Translations under genes and position numbers: made by a program | Shown here: positions 3 through 9,921 of the stretch, piece by piece | Layout of the letters: each line of letters begins with the position of its first letter | Position numbering within the stretch: position 1 is the stretch's first letter | The notes under the pieces: model-generated | The model's database searches: none | The model's input: only the letters and a program-made list of their open reading frames with translations | What the model was told of the DNA's origin: nothing | Source: Candidatus Limnocylindrus sp. | Lineage (GTDB): Bacteria; Chloroflexota; Limnocylindria; Limnocylindrales; Limnocylindraceae | Reading direction: 5' to 3' | DNA: 11,036 bases | Assembly: GCA_040397175.1 (NCBI GenBank) | Contig: JBBAWM010000010.1 | Location: 1 to 11,036 of the forward strand

Positions 3-302
3 ACGACGATGTACCGCGACTTTGCCTTGAGCCCAGAGCTATTCCACTGGGAGTCCCAATCCACAACGAACTCCAATTCACCGACTGGTCAGCGCTACAT
101 CAATCATCGGCAGAACGGGACCAACGTGTTGCTCTTCGTGCGGGAGGCCAAAACCAACTCGCTAGGCGCCTCGCCGTACGTATTCCTCGGGCCGGCTGAC
201 TACGTCAAGCACGAAGGTAGTAGGCCGATGGCCGTCACCTGGAAGCTTCGCAGACCGATGCCGATGGAGATCTTCTTAGCGTCGAGAGCGGCGGTCGCGT
301 AG
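3..302 (+). CDS. 3' end of a DUF3427-domain protein (usually the C-terminus of a large SF2 DEAD/DEAH helicase); 5'-truncated by the window edge
   Basis: Frame is open from position 3: TTMYRDFALSPELFHWESQSTT..SPTGQRYINH..VLLFVRE..PYVFLGPADYVKHEGSRPMAVTWKLRRPMP matches the DUF3427 C-terminal signature (YxDxxxxxxxFHWESQ..GxRY..LFVR..FLG..G.RPM..TWxL). The ATG at 9 is internal. The helicase part is inferred, not visible. Confidence 0.88.
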   Translation, partial: TTMYRDFALSPELFHWESQSTTNSNSPTGQRYINHRQNGTNVLLFVREAKTNSLGASPYVFLGPADYVKHEGSRPMAVTWKLRRPMPMEIFLASRAAVA

Positions 303-2108: not shown

Positions 2109-2144
2109 TGCGCGAGCTACCGACTGTAAGGAGTGTTCCTGAAG

Positions 2145-3200
2145 ATGTTCACTAAGAAGTTTTTTCGTCTTGAGCCGGATGTGGGTACCGACCCGTTAGC
2201 GGTTACAGAAGCGTCATCTCTGACGTCTCCCGATGGGTTGCTCGCCAAGCTTCGTCGACACGATGGAATCCTGGTCGCGACATGGGAGCCCCGCACCGAA
2301 CAAGGCCGGGTGCACGCCCTGGGGATCGTGCAGGAAATCGACAAGGGACGATCAGCAATGGTTGATTGGCGACCGGCCAACTTCACCTTGCACCCGAGCG
2401 GTCAGGGAGCCGTCCAGTGGAGGAAGAGACCTTTTTTTGAGTTCGCCGAGAAGGTCGCTGCCCGCTACGGGCTGATTGGCTACTTCGACGATGCCTTTTC
2501 TATGAGCAATGGCGCGGCTCGCGATCGCGACGGGTCTGCGGAGGGCCCTCCGGCTGCATTCGCAACAGCATCGGTTCCAGAATCACTCGGTGCTCACCTG
2601 CCGACGGACACCACTAGTTCCCCCGAAAGCAAAGGTCCGCAATGCAATCGAGTCGCACCCAATGGTGAGATTTCCGCTACCCCCGCGCGCGGACTATTCA
2701 TGGGCAATCGGACCAGCCCGCCGCGCTGGTTGGTCTGCGATCTCCATTTTAAGCGGAACCTCAAGGAGCCGCGGAAGTACACCAAACTGTTTTTTCTCGA
2801 CGAAGCAGTTGCCTTGGCGGCTGGACACCGACCGTGCAACACGTGTCGACGTGATCGCTACGAGGCATACCTATCAGCGGTGAGGGCTGAAACCAGTGTC
2901 GCTGGTGCCACGGAACTTGACGCATTACTCAATGCCGCGCGCCGAACCCCTGGCTTGCGCGCTCCGATCGCGTCCCTGCCCGACGGTGCGTTTATCGCAC
3001 TCGGCGAGGGAGATTATCGGCTTAAGTGGCACGGGGCCCTGCACAGGTGGACGCCGGCCGGGTACGTGGACGCAGTAACGCTAACGGATCTTGCCCGCGA
3101 TGATTCGACTGTTCTGACGCCTGAGCCATCCCTTGCGGCGCTGCGTAATAGCTACCTTCCAGAGGTCCACCCCTCGACTAACTCAACCTGCATTACGTAG
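2145..3200 (+). CDS. Two-domain protein: unknown N-terminal domain + linker + conserved domain containing an Ada-type metal-binding motif
   Basis: AAGGAG at 2128-2133 favours ATG 2145 over GTG 2133. The C-terminal half, NRVAPNGEI..ARGLFMGNR..WLVC..YTKLFFLDEAVALAAGHRPCNTCRR, contains the F..A.AAG(H/Y)RPCxxC motif of Ada Zn-binding domains. It starts shortly after the upstream stop codon, so it is probably co-transcribed. Confidence 0.8.
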   Translation: MFTKKFFRLEPDVGTDPLAVTEASSLTSPDGLLAKLRRHDGILVATWEPRTEQGRVHALGIVQEIDKGRSAMVDWRPANFTLHPSGQGAVQWRKRPFFEFAEKVAARYGLIGYFDDAFSMSNGAARDRDGSAEGPPAAFATASVPESLGAHLPTDTTSSPESKGPQCNRVAPNGEISATPARGLFMGNRTSPPRWLVCDLHFKRNLKEPRKYTKLFFLDEAVALAAGHRPCNTCRRDRYEAYLSAVRAETSVAGATELDALLNAARRTPGLRAPIASLPDGAFIALGEGDYRLKWHGALHRWTPAGYVDAVTLTDLARDDSTVLTPEPSLAALRNSYLPEVHPSTNSTCIT

Positions 3201-3213
3201 AGGCATTTCACGC

Positions 3214-3285
3214 CGCGTGTCAGTTCCCCTTCGTGGAATGGAAAGTACGTAGACGAAAGAGATTGCAATGCCGAGTTGGAGCAGC
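3214..3285 (+). repeat. Copy 1 (degenerate) of a 72-bp direct repeat; copy 2 is at 8060-8131
   Basis: Manual ungapped alignment gives 65/72 identity. Contains TGTCAG-N10-TGGAAT and ATG CCG AGT TGG AGC AGC (MPSWSS) at 3268; this frame stops after 18 codons. Confidence 0.95.
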
Positions 3286-3505
3286 AGGCGCGAGTGCGGG
3301 TCACTCCACGCGACAAGGCGATGATGGCCATCGAGGTCCTCGACAAGGTCCGCTCGGTAGCTGCGGTCGCTGGTGACTACGGATGCGGCTGGCACACCAG
3401 GCACGCCCACGTCGTCACCGTCGCCGATGTGCCTGGATGCCGAGCCAGCCCCGGTGGTGGTGCTGGGTATCGATCGAGACCCGCTGCGGCAAAGCCAAAT
3501 GGAAA
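3286..3505 (+). pseudogene. Internal fragment of an ISL3-family transposase with two frameshifts
   Basis: Stitching three + frames gives ARVRVTPRDKAMMAIEVLDKVRSVAAVAGDYGCGWHT..VVTVAD / LDAEPAPVVVLGID / ETRCGKAKWK (last part 3476-3505). This is the ISL3 HTH (RSVxxVAxxYGxxWxT) followed by the LGIDE first catalytic motif. No terminal IRs seen. Confidence 0.8.
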
Positions 3506-3564
3506 ATGGGAAGTGGGCCGAATTCCGGGCGATCGCGCCACCGCTAGGACCAGTGGCAGTGGTG

Positions 3565-4734
3565 TCAGCCTCGCCGGCCGGCCCGCTCGGCGAAGGCGTC
3601 GAGCGCTGCAAGCACTTCGGGCGCGCGCCAGATTCGGTTGCGCGCTCTGTTGGTTGTCTCGATGAGGATCCCGGCTTCGGTCAGTGGGGCGAGATAGCGG
3701 TGGGCGTTGGTGGAGTCGATGCCCAGTTCCGCGGCGAGCAGTGCGGCGTTGACGACGGGGCGGCGAGTAAGCAGATCGGCGAGCTTCCACACGGCGGAGT
3801 CCGAGCGGGCGACGATCTCGTCGTTCCAGCGCCGACGGATATCCCGCAGGTTGGTGACGAGCAGGCGGCCGTTGTCGATCGCGCGGCTGGTGGCGCGTGA
3901 GAAGCACTCGATGATGGGCGCGGCGTCACCTTCGCGGTAGCTGGTCAGGGCGGCGAAGTACGCGCCGGTGTCGGTGAGGAGTCCGGCCGAGACCGGCACC
4001 GTCAGTTGGCGGGTCAGTCCCTTGTTGCGCAGCATGGCTTGGACAAGGGCCCGTCCGGTGCGGCCGTTGCCGTCGGTGAAGGGGTGGATTGTCTCGAACT
4101 GTGCGTGCGCCACGGCGATCTGGGGCAGTGCGGGGATGTCGGCGCGCTGGGAGAACTCGATCAAATCGGTGATCGCTGCGGGGATGAGGTGATGGCGTGG
4201 GCCGACGAAGGTTGCGCCGACGGGCGTCGAGCTGGCGCCTATCCACACCGGCTCGGTGCGGAACGCCCCGGGGGTGTGTCGCGCCTGAGTGGCCATCAGG
4301 GCGCGGTGCATGGTGAGGATGGCGGCGGCGTCGATGGTGTCGGACAGGGAAAGTGCGGCCTGCATCGCGGCGGTGTTGGCAACGATCATCTCGGCGTTGC
4401 GTTTGGCCTGAAGGCCCGGCAGTTCGGCCTCGGCGATGGCTCGGGCCGACGCCGTCAGGTTCTCGATTTGCGAGCTGGCCGCGGACTCCGAGCGCAACAA
4501 CACCGCGGCGAACGGCGCGACTTCGCTCCCGAGTTCGGCGTCGAATCGGGTGATCTCGCGGCTGGCCGACTCCGCCTCGGCGAGGACGGCGGGCGGAAGG
4601 TCCAGCGTCAGGTCGGTGATGGCGGCCGGGACGGCGGGGTGATACGTGCCCAACGCCTGGCCGGCGCTCGCGGGCTGAGCAGGCTGGGGTTCCCACCGGA
4701 CCGTTTCGTAGGTGAGGGAGTGAAGTGACGCCAT
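3565..4734 (-). CDS. Fic family protein, class II (N-terminal inhibitory motif), with C-terminal winged-HTH-like region
   Basis: Canonical HPFTDGNGRTGR active-site motif; SSQIEN matches the inhibitory (S/T)xxxE(G/N); C-terminal PVVNAALLAAELGIDSTNAHRYLAPLTEAGIL..RNRIWRA is wHTH-like. Start placed at ATG 4734 (leaderless, TAATAT 5 nt upstream); ATG 4752 is the alternative. Confidence 0.95.
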   Translation of the reverse strand: MASLHSLTYETVRWEPQPAQPASAGQALGTYHPAVPAAITDLTLDLPPAVLAEAESASREITRFDAELGSEVAPFAAVLLRSESAASSQIENLTASARAIAEAELPGLQAKRNAEMIVANTAAMQAALSLSDTIDAAAILTMHRALMATQARHTPGAFRTEPVWIGASSTPVGATFVGPRHHLIPAAITDLIEFSQRADIPALPQIAVAHAQFETIHPFTDGNGRTGRALVQAMLRNKGLTRQLTVPVSAGLLTDTGAYFAALTSYREGDAAPIIECFSRATSRAIDNGRLLVTNLRDIRRRWNDEIVARSDSAVWKLADLLTRRPVVNAALLAAELGIDSTNAHRYLAPLTEAGILIETTNRARNRIWRAPEVLAALDAFAERAGRRG

Positions 4735-4739
4735 GACCG

Positions 4740-4773
4740 ATATTAACTTCATTTAAACAGTTAAGTGAAGTTA
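4740..4773 (-). promoter_or_regulatory. fic -10 box (TAATAT, 4745-4740) overlapped by a 13-4-13 inverted repeat (probable operator)
   Basis: TAACTTCATTTAA-acag-TTAAGTGAAGTTA at 4744-4773, with 12/13 arm complementarity and very AT-rich for this genome. Confidence 0.75.
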
Positions 4774-4923
4774 GGAGCCATCGTTAGTGTCACTTCGGAT
4801 CCCGGAGATCGAGCTCGACCCGATCGACTGATCCTATGGGTTGACATCCCACTTGGCGATTGACGGGATTCCGTGCAACTGACTGGCCCGGAGCAACGGC
4901 AACCTCAAGAGACCGTTTCCACC

Positions 4924-5027
4924 TAGCATGAGTCCTGCGGTCCGACGGACTTCCCTGGCTCCTCGGAGCCAGCATGGATATGTCCCCATCCGCACGACTC
5001 TGTTCGTGCTGCCTTGGGGAACTCGAC
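4924..5027 (+). promoter_or_regulatory. Candidate -10 (TAGCAT 4924-4929) and structured 5' leader of the DUF2075 gene
   Basis: Hairpins at 4955-4972 (CTGGCTC/GAGCCAG), 4976-4991 (GGAT/ATCC) and 4992-5009 (GCACGA/TCGTGC). TTCCC 4951-4955 is complementary to GGGAA 5017-5021, which overlaps the SD. Confidence 0.55.
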
Positions 5028-6914
5028 GTGACATTGATCCGGACCACCGCGGATCGCGTCCGTGGGATGGTGCCGGAGTCATTGGTCGAGCAGTTGCTGG
5101 AACAGATGCTTCATCGCACTGGGCGCCGTGCAGCACCCGCCGAGCAGACCTCATGGCGGCGCAGCCTCCCGGTATTGGCCGCGGACTTGGCCGACGCCGG
5201 ACTCGGCGACGTCGAGATGCTGGTCGAATATCACCTCCCGTTGACGTCCCAGCGCGCTGACGTTGTCTTGGCCGGAACCCATCCGCAAACCGGCGAGGCG
5301 TCCTATGTAGTCGTCGAGTTGAAGCAGTGGTCCGCGGCATACGCCTTCGAGGGCGACCCGGAGATCGTCGAGGTGCCCGGTGTCCCGGGTGGACCGCGAC
5401 TGCACCCGGTGATTCAGGTGCGCGGCTACTGCGATTACCTGCTGGACTTCGCTCGCGTGTTAGCAGAACGTCCCGATTCGGTGGCCGGCATGGCTTACCT
5501 GCACAACGCCTCAGACCCCGCACTGGTCAAGGACTTGCTTGCGGTCCCAGTATCCAAGACGGGTCGGCTCTTCACCGCCGCGGACAAAGGAGCGATGTTC
5601 GACTTCCTCCGGTCCAGGCTCGCGCCGGGACCCGGACGGGAGGCCGCTGATTTGTTGATCAACTCCGCTGTGGCACCGTCCAAGCAACTGCTCAAACTTG
5701 CGGCGGCGGAAATCCGCGACCGCTCCCAGTTCCGCCTGATCGGAAACCAGCAGTTGGCAGTCGATTTGGTGATGCACGCGGTGGAACACGCGCGGGCGGG
5801 CAATGCCAAGCGGGTGATCGTGGTGACGGGTGGTCCCGGCAGTGGAAAGAGTGTCGTCGCGCTGTCTCTGATGGGGGAGTTGGCGCGGCGCGGGCGCACC
5901 GTCATCCATGCCACGGGGTCACGCTCATTCACCCAGACGCTCAGAAAAGTTGCCGCCGTGCGGGCCCCGAAGGTTCGCGCGCTGTTCAAGTATTTCAACC
6001 AGTTCATGGCGGCCGATCCGAATGGTCTGGATGTTCTGATCATGGATGAGGCCCATCGCATCCGGCAAACGTCGGTCGACCGGTACACCCGCGCGGAGTA
6101 TCGGACTGATCGTCTGCAGATCGACGAACTCATCGCCGCTGCTCGTGTTCCAGTATTTCTTCTTGACGAGCACCAGGTGGTGCGCCCCGGAGAGATGGGA
6201 ACCCTAGCGCAGATTCAGCACCACGCGCGCCACCTTGGGATCGACTTTCACCACATTGCACTCGGTGAGCAGTTCCGATGCGGTGGAAGTGAGGAATACG
6301 TGCACTGGGTGGTGCGGCTGCTGGGGTTGGCCGGAGGCGATCCACCAATGGCGTGGTCCGGTGATCCGCAGTTCCACGTTCGCGTCGCCGAGACGCCGGA
6401 GGAGATGGAACGCTATCTGGTGAGTCAGATCCAGCAGGGCTACTCGTCGCGCATTACGGCCGGATACTGCTGGCCGTGGAGCGACGCTCGCGAGGATGCA
6501 ACGTTGGTGCCTGACGTTCGGATTGGGGCGTGGGCACGACCGTGGAACAGCAAGAGCGACAGAAGAATCGGCGATGCTCCACCCAGTGCGCTCTGGGCCA
6601 CCGATGACGGCGGGTTTGGGCAAGTTGGCTGCATCTACACGGCCCAGGGATTCGAGTACGACTGGAGCGGTGTCATTCTCGGGCCTGACTTCGTGTGGCG
6701 TGATGGCCGGTTCGTGACGGTCCGTGGCGCCAACAAGGATCCCGACTTTCGGAATACCAAGACCGTGCCGGACAACCGGTTCGACGTCCTTGTGCGCCAC
6801 GTCTACAAGGTGTTGTTGACCCGCGGGATGATCGGCACGGTCATTTACTCCACTGACGCAGAGACGCGGGAGGCGTTGCATTCGCTGGTTGGTGCACAGC
6901 GATTTGATGCCTAG
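5028..6914 (+). CDS. DUF2075 family (Schlafen group-3-like SF1 DNA/RNA helicase) with N-terminal PD-(D/E)xK-like nuclease domain
   Basis: N-terminal EY.LP...RADVVLAG..VVVELKQW; Walker A GGPGSGKS; Walker B LIMDEAHR; EQFRCGGS; AGYCWPW; GCIYTAQGFEYD; YKVLLTRG. GTG 5028 is preferred as start (GGGGA at 5016-5020, 7-nt spacing) over ATG 4974. Confidence 0.92.
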   Translation: MTLIRTTADRVRGMVPESLVEQLLEQMLHRTGRRAAPAEQTSWRRSLPVLAADLADAGLGDVEMLVEYHLPLTSQRADVVLAGTHPQTGEASYVVVELKQWSAAYAFEGDPEIVEVPGVPGGPRLHPVIQVRGYCDYLLDFARVLAERPDSVAGMAYLHNASDPALVKDLLAVPVSKTGRLFTAADKGAMFDFLRSRLAPGPGREAADLLINSAVAPSKQLLKLAAAEIRDRSQFRLIGNQQLAVDLVMHAVEHARAGNAKRVIVVTGGPGSGKSVVALSLMGELARRGRTVIHATGSRSFTQTLRKVAAVRAPKVRALFKYFNQFMAADPNGLDVLIMDEAHRIRQTSVDRYTRAEYRTDRLQIDELIAAARVPVFLLDEHQVVRPGEMGTLAQIQHHARHLGIDFHHIALGEQFRCGGSEEYVHWVVRLLGLAGGDPPMAWSGDPQFHVRVAETPEEMERYLVSQIQQGYSSRITAGYCWPWSDAREDATLVPDVRIGAWARPWNSKSDRRIGDAPPSALWATDDGGFGQVGCIYTAQGFEYDWSGVILGPDFVWRDGRFVTVRGANKDPDFRNTKTVPDNRFDVLVRHVYKVLLTRGMIGTVIYSTDAETREALHSLVGAQRFDA

Positions 6915-6984
6915 TCAATCTGGCTGCCGCCACAACCAGGAACTCAAACTCCCTGCACCGTTTCCCGCTTCTTGACACACTGAG

Positions 6985-7908
6985 ATGGTGCAGCGCGAGG
7001 AGCTTCTCGAAAAGCTGGCCTCACTGCGGATGGCGTCGCGGGGCGGCGGCGAGCGTTACCCGCACAAGCCGCTGCTCCTGCTGTGGTTGCTCGGAAGGAT
7101 GCAACGGCAGGGAACCACGGTCTGCACCTACGAGGAGGCCGAGGCGCCCGTGAGTCGATTGCTGGATGACTTCGGGCCGCCCTCGGCTAAGAAGTACCGG
7201 GCGGCCATGCCGTTCGTCCACCTGGAGTCCGACCTCTGGGAGCTGGGTGGCGATGACGGCGAGCCGTTGAACGACAACCGGGCCGCATTGTGTCGAGCGC
7301 ATGCCGTCGGGCGACTTCGCCCAGAGGTTGAGGAACTCTTGCGCCGGGATCCCGGACTGATTGCCGAATCGGCGCGCATGTTGATCGACCTCAACTTCAC
7401 GCCGACCTACCTCGACCCGATCTGCGCCGATGTGGGCCTAGACCTGGATGTGGGCCGGGACCTCGACGTGGCGAAAGATGTGGCCGGGCAGCACACGGTC
7501 CGACGGCCAACTCGTGCACGCCGACGTGCCGGCTTCCGCAGTGAGGTGTTGCACGGCTGGCGTAACCGGTGCGCCATGTGTGGCTACGACGGCGCTCTGG
7601 GCCGTGATCCCGCCGGCCTGGATGCCGCCCACGTGTTCTGGCACTCCCAAGGCGGTCCCGATGAGACCGACAACGGTCTGGCGCTGTGCTCGCTGCATCA
7701 CGTGCTCTTCGATCTGGGCGCACTTGGCCTCACTGATGATCTTTCCGTGCGGGTCTCACCGCACTACGTTGCGCGCAGCGAGCAGGGGGAGCGGCTCGTC
7801 TATGACCTTGAGGGCCGTGCGCTCTTTGACCCTGTGCCCCGACACCCGACGCCGAACGCGCAGCATGTCCAGTGGCACACCACGCAGGTGTTCAAGACGT
7901 CGGCGTAG
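6985..7908 (+). CDS. HNH endonuclease with N-terminal sulfur-binding-domain (SBD)-like region; putative phosphorothioate-dependent type IV restriction enzyme
   Basis: N-terminal RYPHKPLLLLWLL..MPFVHLESDLWEL resembles SBD signatures (PHKPxLLL; PFxxL...W). C-terminal R..FR..VL..W..RCAMCG..LDAAHV..GGPDETDNGLALCSLHHVLFDLG is an HNH_2-type Zn/HNH domain. Confidence 0.88.
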   Translation: MVQREELLEKLASLRMASRGGGERYPHKPLLLLWLLGRMQRQGTTVCTYEEAEAPVSRLLDDFGPPSAKKYRAAMPFVHLESDLWELGGDDGEPLNDNRAALCRAHAVGRLRPEVEELLRRDPGLIAESARMLIDLNFTPTYLDPICADVGLDLDVGRDLDVAKDVAGQHTVRRPTRARRRAGFRSEVLHGWRNRCAMCGYDGALGRDPAGLDAAHVFWHSQGGPDETDNGLALCSLHHVLFDLGALGLTDDLSVRVSPHYVARSEQGERLVYDLEGRALFDPVPRHPTPNAQHVQWHTTQVFKTSA

Positions 7909-7980
7909 GGCACCGACAGTCCTTCCTTCCTCGACGTCTTCGGCGGCGGCGTGGTCAGCGGCGCGGATATGGATAGGACG

Positions 7981-8007
7981 TTGATATCGCGGGCGATATC
8001 AAGTTTT
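7981..8007 (+). terminator. Perfect inverted repeat followed by a short T run; candidate intrinsic terminator (or operator)
   Basis: TTGATATCGC-gg-GCGATATCAA (7981-8002) then GTTTT, about 70 nt after the HNH stop codon. Confidence 0.55.
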
Positions 8008-8059
8008 GGAAGGACACAGCGGTCCGGAACTGGCCCGGCCGATGCCGAATTCAGCACCA

Positions 8060-8131
8060 CGCGTGTCAGTCCTCCTTCGTAGAATGAAAAGTACGTAGAC
8101 GAAGGAGAGCGCAATGCCGAGTTGGAGCAGC
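8060..8131 (+). repeat. Copy 2 (intact) of the 72-bp direct repeat
   Basis: 65/72 identical to 3214-3285, with an intact -10 (TAGAAT), SD (AAGGAG) and open reading frame. Confidence 0.95.
8064..8085 (+). promoter_or_regulatory. PafBC-dependent / RecA-NDp-type DNA-damage promoter
   Basis: TGTCAG (8064-8069)-N10-TAGAAT (8080-8085) fits the mycobacterial consensus TGTC(A/G)G-N10-TANNNT in both sequence and spacing. Confidence 0.7.
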
Positions 8132-8266
8132 GACCGTCGGTTCGGCAAGAACCTTGACGAGCAAAAGCGGGACCGCGATCAGCGCTATCGCGACGCGCGC
8201 GCCGAGGCGTCCACGGAATACCTCGCCGACATCGCCTCCGATGGGCCGGACTGCGAGGACGATTAG
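8114..8266 (+). CDS. Unannotated 50-aa highly charged small protein (MPSWSSDRRFGKNLDEQKRDRDQRYRDARAEASTEYLADIASDGPDCEDD)
   Basis: Translated by hand; it is absent from the supplied ORF track. AAGGAG at 8102-8107 lies 6 nt before the ATG, there is a promoter upstream, third codon positions are mostly G/C, and the first six codons are identical in repeat copy 1. Confidence 0.65.
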   Translation: MPSWSSDRRFGKNLDEQKRDRDQRYRDARAEASTEYLADIASDGPDCEDD

Positions 8267-8320
8267 CCTCCCCGCGGCCAGACTCCCTGCGTCGGCCCTG
8301 GCGAGGTGGCAGGAAATCTC

Positions 8321-8536
8321 ATGAACAGCCTCGGCACTGAGAAGTCCGTGGATCTGTTTCCGCCAGCTACTTGGACCAGCCACCCGGCAGCGCGGTACGC
8401 CGGCGCCCACTACCCCGGCCTGCGGCCGACCGGGTCCTGGCGTCTGGACCCCGACGGTGAGCTTCGCGGCCTAGACCCGGACGCATTGGGCTGGCGTGAC
8501 CGCGATACAGCCTGTAATCCAACGGAAGTGGACTGA
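8321..8536 (+). pseudogene. Short ORF, possibly the truncated N-terminus of a larger actinobacterial hypothetical protein
   Basis: AGGAAA upstream of ATG 8321; strongly GC3-biased codons through YPGLRPTGSWRLDPDGELRGLDPDALGWRDRD, after which the composition changes and the frame stops. Confidence 0.35.
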
Positions 8537-8665
8537 CGGCTGGGGAATTGAGTACGACGTCAGCCGGCGATTCATCACGGTTGGTGAATTGCTTACCGGC
8601 AGCCGGGCACCATCGGGCGAATGAATCGTGGCGTTGTTTGGCAGGGCCGCCTGTGCATATCTGTA

Positions 8666-8700
8666 TTGCACTTAACTGCAAACTGTTATACCCTTACGGC
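8666..8700 (+). promoter_or_regulatory. SigA-type leaderless promoter of the toxin-antitoxin-like pair
   Basis: TTGCAC (8666-8671)-N17-TACCCT (8689-8694)-N6-GTG (8701). Confidence 0.7.
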
Positions 8701-9000
8701 GTGCGGATCGACATCCGGGCTAGCGCCGCCGACCACGGCATCACCCCGGACGAAGTCCGCGCAGTCGTGACCTTCCCGGCGCTCCGGCTCACACTCGCGC
8801 CCCGCCGGCCCAACTCCGCACCGATGCTGTATGTCGGACCTGCCGCTCCCAACGAACCATGGATTGAGGTGATCGCCGACATGGCCATCCCCGAGGTTGC
8901 CGAGGTGTTTCACGCCATGATGCTGCGCCGCAGCACCTTTACAGCCGCCCGTCGTTTCGCTCCTGACCTCAAGCCGACATTCACCCGTCAACGCCGATGA
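8701..9000 (+). CDS. Putative type II toxin, RelE/BrnT-like fold (99 aa)
   Basis: MRIDIRASAADHGITPDEVRAVV..LYVGP....WIEVIA..EVFHAMMLR follows the 'SAxxHGI..lxiGP..lEv..vFHAM' pattern of small actinobacterial toxin-like proteins encoded upstream of RHH genes. The promoter supports GTG 8701 rather than 8548 as start. Confidence 0.7.
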   Translation: MRIDIRASAADHGITPDEVRAVVTFPALRLTLAPRRPNSAPMLYVGPAAPNEPWIEVIADMAIPEVAEVFHAMMLRRSTFTAARRFAPDLKPTFTRQRR

Positions 9001-9016
9001 TCCCGAAGGAGGAATC

Positions 9017-9340
9017 ATGACCAAGCGTGGAACGCCTCCCCGTCTGACCGATGTCGAGTACGCCGAGCTGGCCGCCGACTACGAAGCCAACCCGATCACC
9101 ACCGACGAAATTCTGTCCGCCGAAGTCAACCCTGCCTTCCTCCCGACCGGCCGCCCCACCAAAGCGGCCGGCAAGGGTGGCAAGACCCCCGTGATGGCTT
9201 TGCGCTTGCCCGCTGCTCTGCGGGCTGAGGTCAAGCAACGAGTCGCGGCCGGGGAATCGCGATCCGAAGCAGAACTGATACGGCGGGCGCTCATCGAATA
9301 CCTCGAATCGCACCGACCGGCTGGCAAGTCCAGAAGCTGA
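9017..9340 (+). CDS. Ribbon-helix-helix (CopG/BrnA-like) antitoxin
   Basis: AAGGAGG SD; acidic N-terminus, GRP motif, then the RHH pattern VMALRLPAALRAEVKQRVAAGESRSEAELIRRALIEYL; 16 nt downstream of the toxin-like gene. Confidence 0.8.
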   Translation: MTKRGTPPRLTDVEYAELAADYEANPITTDEILSAEVNPAFLPTGRPTKAAGKGGKTPVMALRLPAALRAEVKQRVAAGESRSEAELIRRALIEYLESHRPAGKSRS

Positions 9341-9823: not shown

Positions 9824-9921
9824 GATTCCCCCCGAAGTTCGTTTCCGTATCGATGTCTACCAACGGCTACTGACAAAAGCCGTTCGCTGACGTCGTGAGC
9901 GATGTCACGTAGCCTGCGGAC

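Follow-up and report, generated by a model that had tools for sequence, protein, structure and literature searches.

The promoters of the PafBC regulon, the RecA-NDp promoters, have the consensus tGTCgg(N10)tA(N3)T according to the available extracts of two reports (PMC8635444; PMC8682763), and TGTCAG is a described variant of the 5' hexamer in the extract of a third (PMC8151990). In flexible genomic islands, a second system of relevance here, homologous exchange takes place at conserved boundaries, as an extract of one account has it (PMC4033161). In Moraxellaceae, the WYL activator DdaA links the damage response to restriction–modification and CRISPR defence, again according to an extract (PMC12392091). 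In this study, a pair of 72-bp direct repeats was analyzed in contig JBBAWM010000010.1 of assembly GCA_040397175.1 (Candidatus Limnocylindrus sp.), a stretch of 11,036 nt that is referred to below as the window. The repeat is a relic of a small gene, probably a new addition to a regulon already described, and is located in a known kind of island: its downstream copy (copy 2) carries the intact promoter and the start of a gene of 50 amino acids (aa), referred to here as the micro-gene, and its upstream copy (copy 1) is a dead relic.

Copy 2 resembles the PafBC promoters of those extracts in its consensus, in its TGTCAG variant and in having no -35 element, and relatives encode pafB-pafC-like genes. 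It departs from the regulon as sketched there in that the target is a 50-aa gene without a family match, present in 5/301 Mycobacterium genomes searched (each of 2.9–3.6 Mb, two of the five with two paralogues), and in that one promoter class has a 9-nt spacer. The locus shares with the flexible islands, as extracted, a fixed position, different cargo of similar function, conserved flanks that recombine and insertion sequence (IS) relics. However, the anchor here is a 210-bp promoter-plus-microgene unit inside the island, the cargo changes by replacement as well as by addition, and a second, clipped anchor has been kept. DdaA, as far as its extract goes, comes closest as an earlier example of a global damage activator whose boxes are found at defence loci, although the activator and the promoter geometry differ and the evidence here is that of a motif. 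As judged by titles and abstract openings, none of the papers listed in literature searches describes this locus or a control of defence islands by PafBC, and an extract of PMC12381374 gave no information on the locus; supplementary regulon tables could list similar targets. The repeat itself is an ordinary relic, and the value of the locus lies in what it leads to: a 50-aa gene that is restricted to one lineage, lacks annotation and has a PafBC-type promoter under strong conservation, and a cluster of such boxes in an accessory and defence region. Should induction by damage hold true, the horizontally exchanged defence cargo of mycobacteria would be under PafBC control, in parallel to the role of DdaA in Moraxellaceae; the cultured relative G041, with its complete genome, makes a test direct.

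The small gene at the intact repeat copy

The two copies (Table 1) are identical at 65/72 positions without gaps, are spaced 4846 bp apart and were aligned by BLASTN with an E value of ~1e-21, in agreement with the original prediction. They differ at 3225, 3227, 3235, 3241, 3258, 3263 and 3264 (copy-1 coordinates), leaving a longest perfect run of 21 nt, and the four differences that had been assigned to the -10 element, the Shine–Dalgarno (SD) sequence and the spacer are positioned as claimed. No other direct repeat in the window comes near this pair in length, nothing else there is duplicated, and the proposed BLASTN check for further copies of the 72-mer found none beyond these two in the 1.38-Mb assembly. 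No inverted repeat was found inside either copy among the 25 longest of the 92 inverted pairs in the window, and an Rfam scan of the window gave no matches at E values up to 1.

Copy 2 consists of 54 nt upstream of, plus the first 18 nt of, a 50-aa open reading frame (ORF). Its product has 53 homologous clusters, bearing out the earlier description of the repeat as a promoter with a micro-ORF. A profile search with the family returned 16 representatives, the weakest of which is a repetitive, chance-like protein, and the single longer match to the protein is a read-through of the same gene. The relatives fall in Mycobacterium or Actinomycetota genomes. Among 16 alleles, the variable sites are distributed 6/6/39 over the three codon positions, and at the level of sequence the gene is shown to be under purifying selection; judged by these comparisons, intact copy 2 is the promoter and start of a conserved small gene of freshwater mycobacteria. 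The protein has a basic N-terminal half and an acidic tail, with R21, E31, Y36, A38 and D39 invariant among distant homologues, and an AlphaFold model consists of a single helix at residues 14–42 (pLDDT 74, pTM 0.35). No family was found in Pfam, NCBIfam, PADLOC or PHROGs and no PDB match under an E value of 0.39, and the Atlas returned unnamed clusters only. Positions 7900–8700 had no match in phage and plasmid collections, and none of 271 candidate stretches in viral contigs was confirmed as the micro-gene. The protein could tentatively be a single-helix partner of some DNA-damage-response protein, which is the least certain part of the interpretation.

Copy 2 has the elements of the PafBC pattern, namely a GTC-containing -26 element, a 10-nt spacer and a tA(N3)T -10 element. 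Copy 1 departs from it at the -10 A, a base that is A in 9/9 comparison loci, and its box is likely to be inactive because this A became G at 3235. No canonical -35/-10 pair of the sigma-70 type was found at 3000–8800 (0.9 expected, making this a weak test); together with the consensus match, this speaks for a PafBC-type promoter and not for a plain sigma-70 promoter. The upstream sequences of distant homologues share TGTCnn-N10-TAnnnT and little else. The box TGTCnn-N9/10-TAnnnT precedes the gene at 32/35 homologue loci (30/33, with L011 and L015 added on a second look, and with L141 left out of the count), several of which repeat one haplotype, compared with 12/1754 background windows. A second allele class (L028, L031, L041, L078, L080, L082, L100, L104 and duplicates) has a 9-nt spacer with both elements conserved, and may be a tolerated spacing variant of the PafBC-type box. 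Given its motif, the intact micro-gene is likely to be switched on by DNA damage via PafBC. As a separate observation, another PafBC-type box stands directly after the micro-gene stop and 5' of a membrane-protein gene at L008:2446-2467, as well as in L041 and related loci.

The strict box pattern has 41 matches in the complete genome G041, compared with 10 for the reversed pattern. Downstream ORFs were scanned for 32/41 of these boxes, which precede recA, lexA, dnaB, a RecC-like gene, the ribonucleotide reductase small chain and 13 DUF222 genes; the recA box has the TGTCAG hexamer found in copy 2. The same genome encodes tandem pafB-pafC-like WYL genes adjoining tatC, and pafB/pafC-like genes are also present in the relatives G042 and G329. 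NCBIfam gave no name to these candidates, which are identified by their WYL domains, the adjacency of tatC and the DNA-reading residues R46 and R50. Queries with PafB, PafC and DUF222 found nothing in the source assembly, the core of which is non-mycobacterial.

The variable slot and the origin of copy 1

A type IV restriction gene precedes a variable slot, which the micro-gene closes. In the window and in 9/25 other loci, the distance from the end of the DUF3427 gene to the micro-gene ATG is 78, 458, 1097, ~2015, 5079 or 7815 bp. DUF3427 or HNH genes lie 5' of the micro-gene in 14/25 other loci, ten upstream flank classes occur among 25 units, and the cargo matches mREase IV, HNH, DruE, UzuA, PDC-S40 and SoFic. 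The earlier view of an expandable locus with largely defence-type cargo thus holds, for a slot of 78 bp to 7.8 kb. The micro-gene alleles are mosaic, with site incompatibility growing with distance in the unit (rho 0.30, p 0.0005, 16 alleles). From this allele recombination and the variable slot it follows that the intact gene is likely to be a homologous-recombination anchor at one end of the defence slot. A TM0106-family RecB-like nuclease was also noted as recurrent cargo adjoining the DUF3427 gene (L034:1949-3679; L041:4138-5853).

The repeat unit had been proposed to mark cassette junctions in an expandable defence array, with recombination between the copies deleting or amplifying the 4.8-kb block between them. 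Integron attC and pdif arrays hold modular cargo, the order of which varies while its orientation is kept. In contrast to those sites, the repeat here has no dyad symmetry, does not recur between modules and holds a coding start, and no recombinase was found among the 14 window ORFs or among 73 ORFs covering most of the G041 island. Each of the 25 other loci has just one copy (9 of these with at least 5 kb upstream), as does the complete genome G041; tabulation of copy number against flanking cargo in the relatives gave one copy per locus throughout. A metagenome pattern scan yielded 102 loci, of which 22 have the gene and 80 were dropped as chance matches, and no copy-1-like stub was among the 102. 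Joints between the copies, as expected for a deletion, amplification or circle, were absent from the contigs of 4/4 runs, in which rare forms are dropped. With a longest perfect run of 21 nt, the 72-bp remnant probably offers too little homology for the block to be deleted or amplified at any substantial rate. In favour of a site-specific, attC- or pdif-like junction, the slot content is variable, other modules also start with such a box, for instance after the micro-gene in L008, and flank homology breaks sharply 4–7 nt before the box in many loci; however, this left edge of the unit is also the limit of promoter constraint. Such a junction is very unlikely.

Nor does the 4.8-kb block act as a unit. 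In run X1, perhaps the source run, contigs end and the depth changes stepwise at 708, outside the block, and at 4798, inside it, and not at the repeats (22.8 compared with 37.8–39.3, contig depth in this run not being a share of cells). Moreover, L034 has the DUF2075 and HNH genes and the micro-gene without fic, and L014 has fic and the micro-gene without DUF2075. The segment 708–4827 is the real variable unit in run X1. It forms one contig of lower depth, containing an exo/endo-phosphatase gene, PDC-S40, copy 1, the ISL3 relic and fic, and alternative sequence joins at 708 and 4798.

Copy 1 is cut after codon 6 of the micro-gene and fused to a fragment of an ISL3-family transposase, which the original prediction had overlooked. 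The fragment has 76% nucleotide identity to a Rhodococcus plasmid element, the protein of which passes the NF033550 cut-off, and at the protein level this piece of 72 residues is 72% and 50% identical to a transposase positive for NF033550. No ISL3 ends and no target duplication were identified. The 72-bp repeat was considered as an ISL3 target-site duplication and rejected, as it is 72 bp long at 90% identity and the ISL3 piece, an inner part of the element, is present on just one side. The junction of PDC-S40, copy 1 and ISL3 is spanned by contigs in 2/4 independent lake-metagenome runs, X8 (66 differences in 901 bp, ~93% identity) and X4 (29 differences in 564 bp, ~95% identity), and is therefore neither an artefact nor private to one strain. 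An assembly artefact could be suspected given the high variability of the region and the probable mis-binning of the contig described below. However, the two copies differ at seven sites, a single X1 contig covers 708–4827 and the spanning contigs from two other studies refute it for the copy-1 junction, leaving a negligible chance of such an error. Contigs spanning ISL3 and fic were found in runs X3 and X7, and the fic gene travels with the ISL3 fragment.

Copy 1 had been described as decaying, which applies to two of its sites. In a comparison with nine loci of the same promoter class, copy 1 alone has the -10 A to G change at 3235 and the SD change at 3258, and its state at 3225 is common to one of the nine. 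At 3227 and 3241 it is copy 2 that has changed, and the TT at 3263–3264 is the usual spacer allele of the other promoter class. On this allele comparison, the decay is real and limited to the two sites. In X4 and X8, the copy-1 SD is intact and the 3258 change is absent. This persistence of the arrangement in populations 5–7% divergent would suit a retained, functional damage-inducible promoter, which could for example produce an RNA antisense to the convergent fic gene. However, copy 1 of the window has lost the conserved -10 A, neutral hitch-hiking along with PDC-S40 and fic would also account for the persistence, and a functional copy 1 is even more improbable than a site-specific junction.

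The arrangement is most probably, and with moderate confidence, explained by stacked alleles of the micro-gene. Two modules, each ending in a micro-gene allele, would have come to lie in tandem; insertion of an ISL3 element, followed by a deletion, would have clipped the upstream copy after codon 6; and the -10 element and SD sequence of copy 1 would then have begun to decay, in this presumed order.

Several observations weigh against this account or against parts of it. Loci L008, L138 and L140 have no box, 12/22 metagenome loci have a 9-nt spacer instead of the published 10 nt, and PafBC control is deduced from the motif. The missing joints between the copies are weak evidence because contigs drop rare variants. 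Distant homologues (L007, L009-L013, L015, L020) have transport and metabolic genes as neighbours and lack defence cargo, and the anchor role is therefore limited to one clade. Furthermore, copies 1 and 2 share three sites that are not present in the nine other loci with a 10-nt spacer, a hybrid haplotype that also fits an old duplication or gene conversion. Copy 1 might thus be the scar of an old tandem duplication in this lineage followed by random loss, with the cargo and ISL3 coming between; this differs from the stacking of alleles only in the origin of the second copy. On the other hand, copy 1 has the TT spacer of the other promoter class and copy 2 does not. Copy 2 is more similar to alleles found in other samples (67/72) than it is to copy 1 (65/72), run X11 also has contigs that combine the hybrid start with the left flank of copy 2, and a duplication would have left its mark on no other part of the window. 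Such a duplication appears unlikely, though clearly less so than the two alternatives of a junction and a functional promoter.

Box cluster and gene order in two relatives

Apart from the gene itself, the interest of the system lies mainly in a clustering of boxes and an orientation-preserving scrambling of genes. In G041, 14/41 PafBC-type boxes lie within 100 kb around the micro-gene (G041:C1:2622624-2721782), which is ~3% of the genome (scan test p < 5e-5; Markov controls averaging 0.6, with 2 at most), and other spacer lengths gave zero or one match each in this region. The boxes here precede a DUF1156 gene, a metallophosphoesterase gene, DUF7229 genes and several unknowns. The homologous region of G042 holds 10/33 boxes in 75 kb, a cluster that by descent is not independent of that in G041.

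Gene order was compared for this one genome pair with a simple gene caller. Between G041 (2.62–2.74 Mb) and G042:C2:1-120 kb, there are 15 breakpoints in 18 adjacencies while 17/19 orthologues keep their relative orientation; in one 60-kb core region used as a control, 0/26 adjacencies are broken. Scrambling that keeps orientation is the pattern expected of duplication and loss or of excision and reinsertion, which favours the old-duplication origin of copy 1. A broader but speculative and rather doubtful picture would be that freshwater mycobacteria maintain a zone of ~100 kb where accessory and anti-phage modules are shuffled and, each having its own PafBC box, are wired to a global damage activator that senses single-stranded DNA. 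The modules would be reordered without inversion via circular or tandem intermediates, the clipped repeat would be a fossil of this process, and the 50-aa gene would be a damage-response effector anchoring the zone.

Other features of the window and the origin of the contig

The features are listed in Table 1. The Fic, DUF2075 helicase and phosphorothioate-binding HNH calls were upheld by Pfam, PADLOC and NCBIfam. Each copy had been said to follow a nuclease-containing module; this stands for copy 2, which follows the HNH gene, whereas the gene before copy 1 is PDC-S40, the protein of which has a weak Ada-type Zn site and was not shown to be a nuclease.

Table 1. Features of the window, with positions and supporting evidence
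Feature	Position	Strand	Evidence
C-terminus of DUF3427 type IV restriction helicase, left anchor of variable slot	9..302	+	Pfam, PADLOC; continues on contig C22
PDC-S40-like candidate defence gene, 5' of copy 1	2133..3200	+	PADLOC 1.5e-53; joined to copy 1 and ISL3 in X4, X8
Repeat copy 1: relic promoter, SD and codons 1–6 of micro-gene	3214..3285	+	65/72 to copy 2; homology stops at codon 6
PafBC-type box of copy 1	3218..3239	+	Conserved -10 A changed to G at 3235
ISL3-family transposase fragment, internal, frameshifted, residues ~99–170 of 435	3288..3516	+	Nucleotide identity, tblastn, weak Pfam HTH_Tnp_ISL3
Fic/SoFic-like gene	3565..4752	-	Pfam Fic, PADLOC SoFic
DUF2075/SLFN-g3 helicase	4974..6914	+	Pfam 2e-83
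Phosphorothioate-DNA-binding HNH endonuclease	6985..7908	+	NF045808, 257 bits against cut-off of 180
Core of dispersed palindromic element, 5' of copy 2	7982..8001	.	Copies in G041, G042 and other Mycobacterium genomes
Repeat copy 2: start of micro-gene with intact promoter and SD	8060..8131	+	Comparison with copy 1 and allele set
PafBC-type box TGTCAG-N10-TAGAAT	8064..8085	+	Sole strict match in window
Conserved 50-aa gene	8114..8266	+	Homologue clusters, profile search, allele comparison, AlphaFold model

The window is the complete 11-kb contig C10 of its assembly. The assembly core has 51% (RpoC) and 66% (RecA) identity to Mycobacterium proteins, and the tetranucleotide correlation of C10 is 0.933, compared with a minimum of 0.954 for same-sized chunks of the main contig. 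C10 ends in F420 nitroreductase and AbmR genes, and contig C22, which encodes most of the DUF3427 helicase, joins its left end via a 55-nt overlap. C10 and C22 are probably pieces of a freshwater Mycobacterium mis-binned into a small non-mycobacterial assembly, and this would explain why 40 relatives of the source assembly gave two weak matches of 32–41 bp and no unit.

The palindromic element (~7978–8030) is unrelated to the 72-bp repeat and mostly intergenic. It occurs in 12/201 Mycobacterium genomes, with three copies within 20 kb in G041 and seven in G042, five of the latter on one contig. In other runs, its edges are the site of several joints between contigs and of loose ends, including beside 9901–9905. 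A terminator scan did not flag it, and a reading as a Xer/dif site was considered and set aside; a REP-like (repetitive extragenic palindromic) or MITE-like (miniature inverted-repeat transposable) element, a terminator and an operator are candidates. Downstream of the micro-gene, 8306–8536 is a truncated 76-aa form of an unannotated gene of ~215 aa; a gamma-glutamylcyclotransferase-like gene comes after this longer gene in L034, L042, L063 and L096. At 8701–9340, a small gene (phrog_26576) and a ribbon-helix-helix gene form a toxin–antitoxin-like pair, which is found 5' of the micro-gene in run X3. The low-GC contigs C6, C7 and C11 of the assembly have repeated or mutually joining ends, suggesting circular elements.

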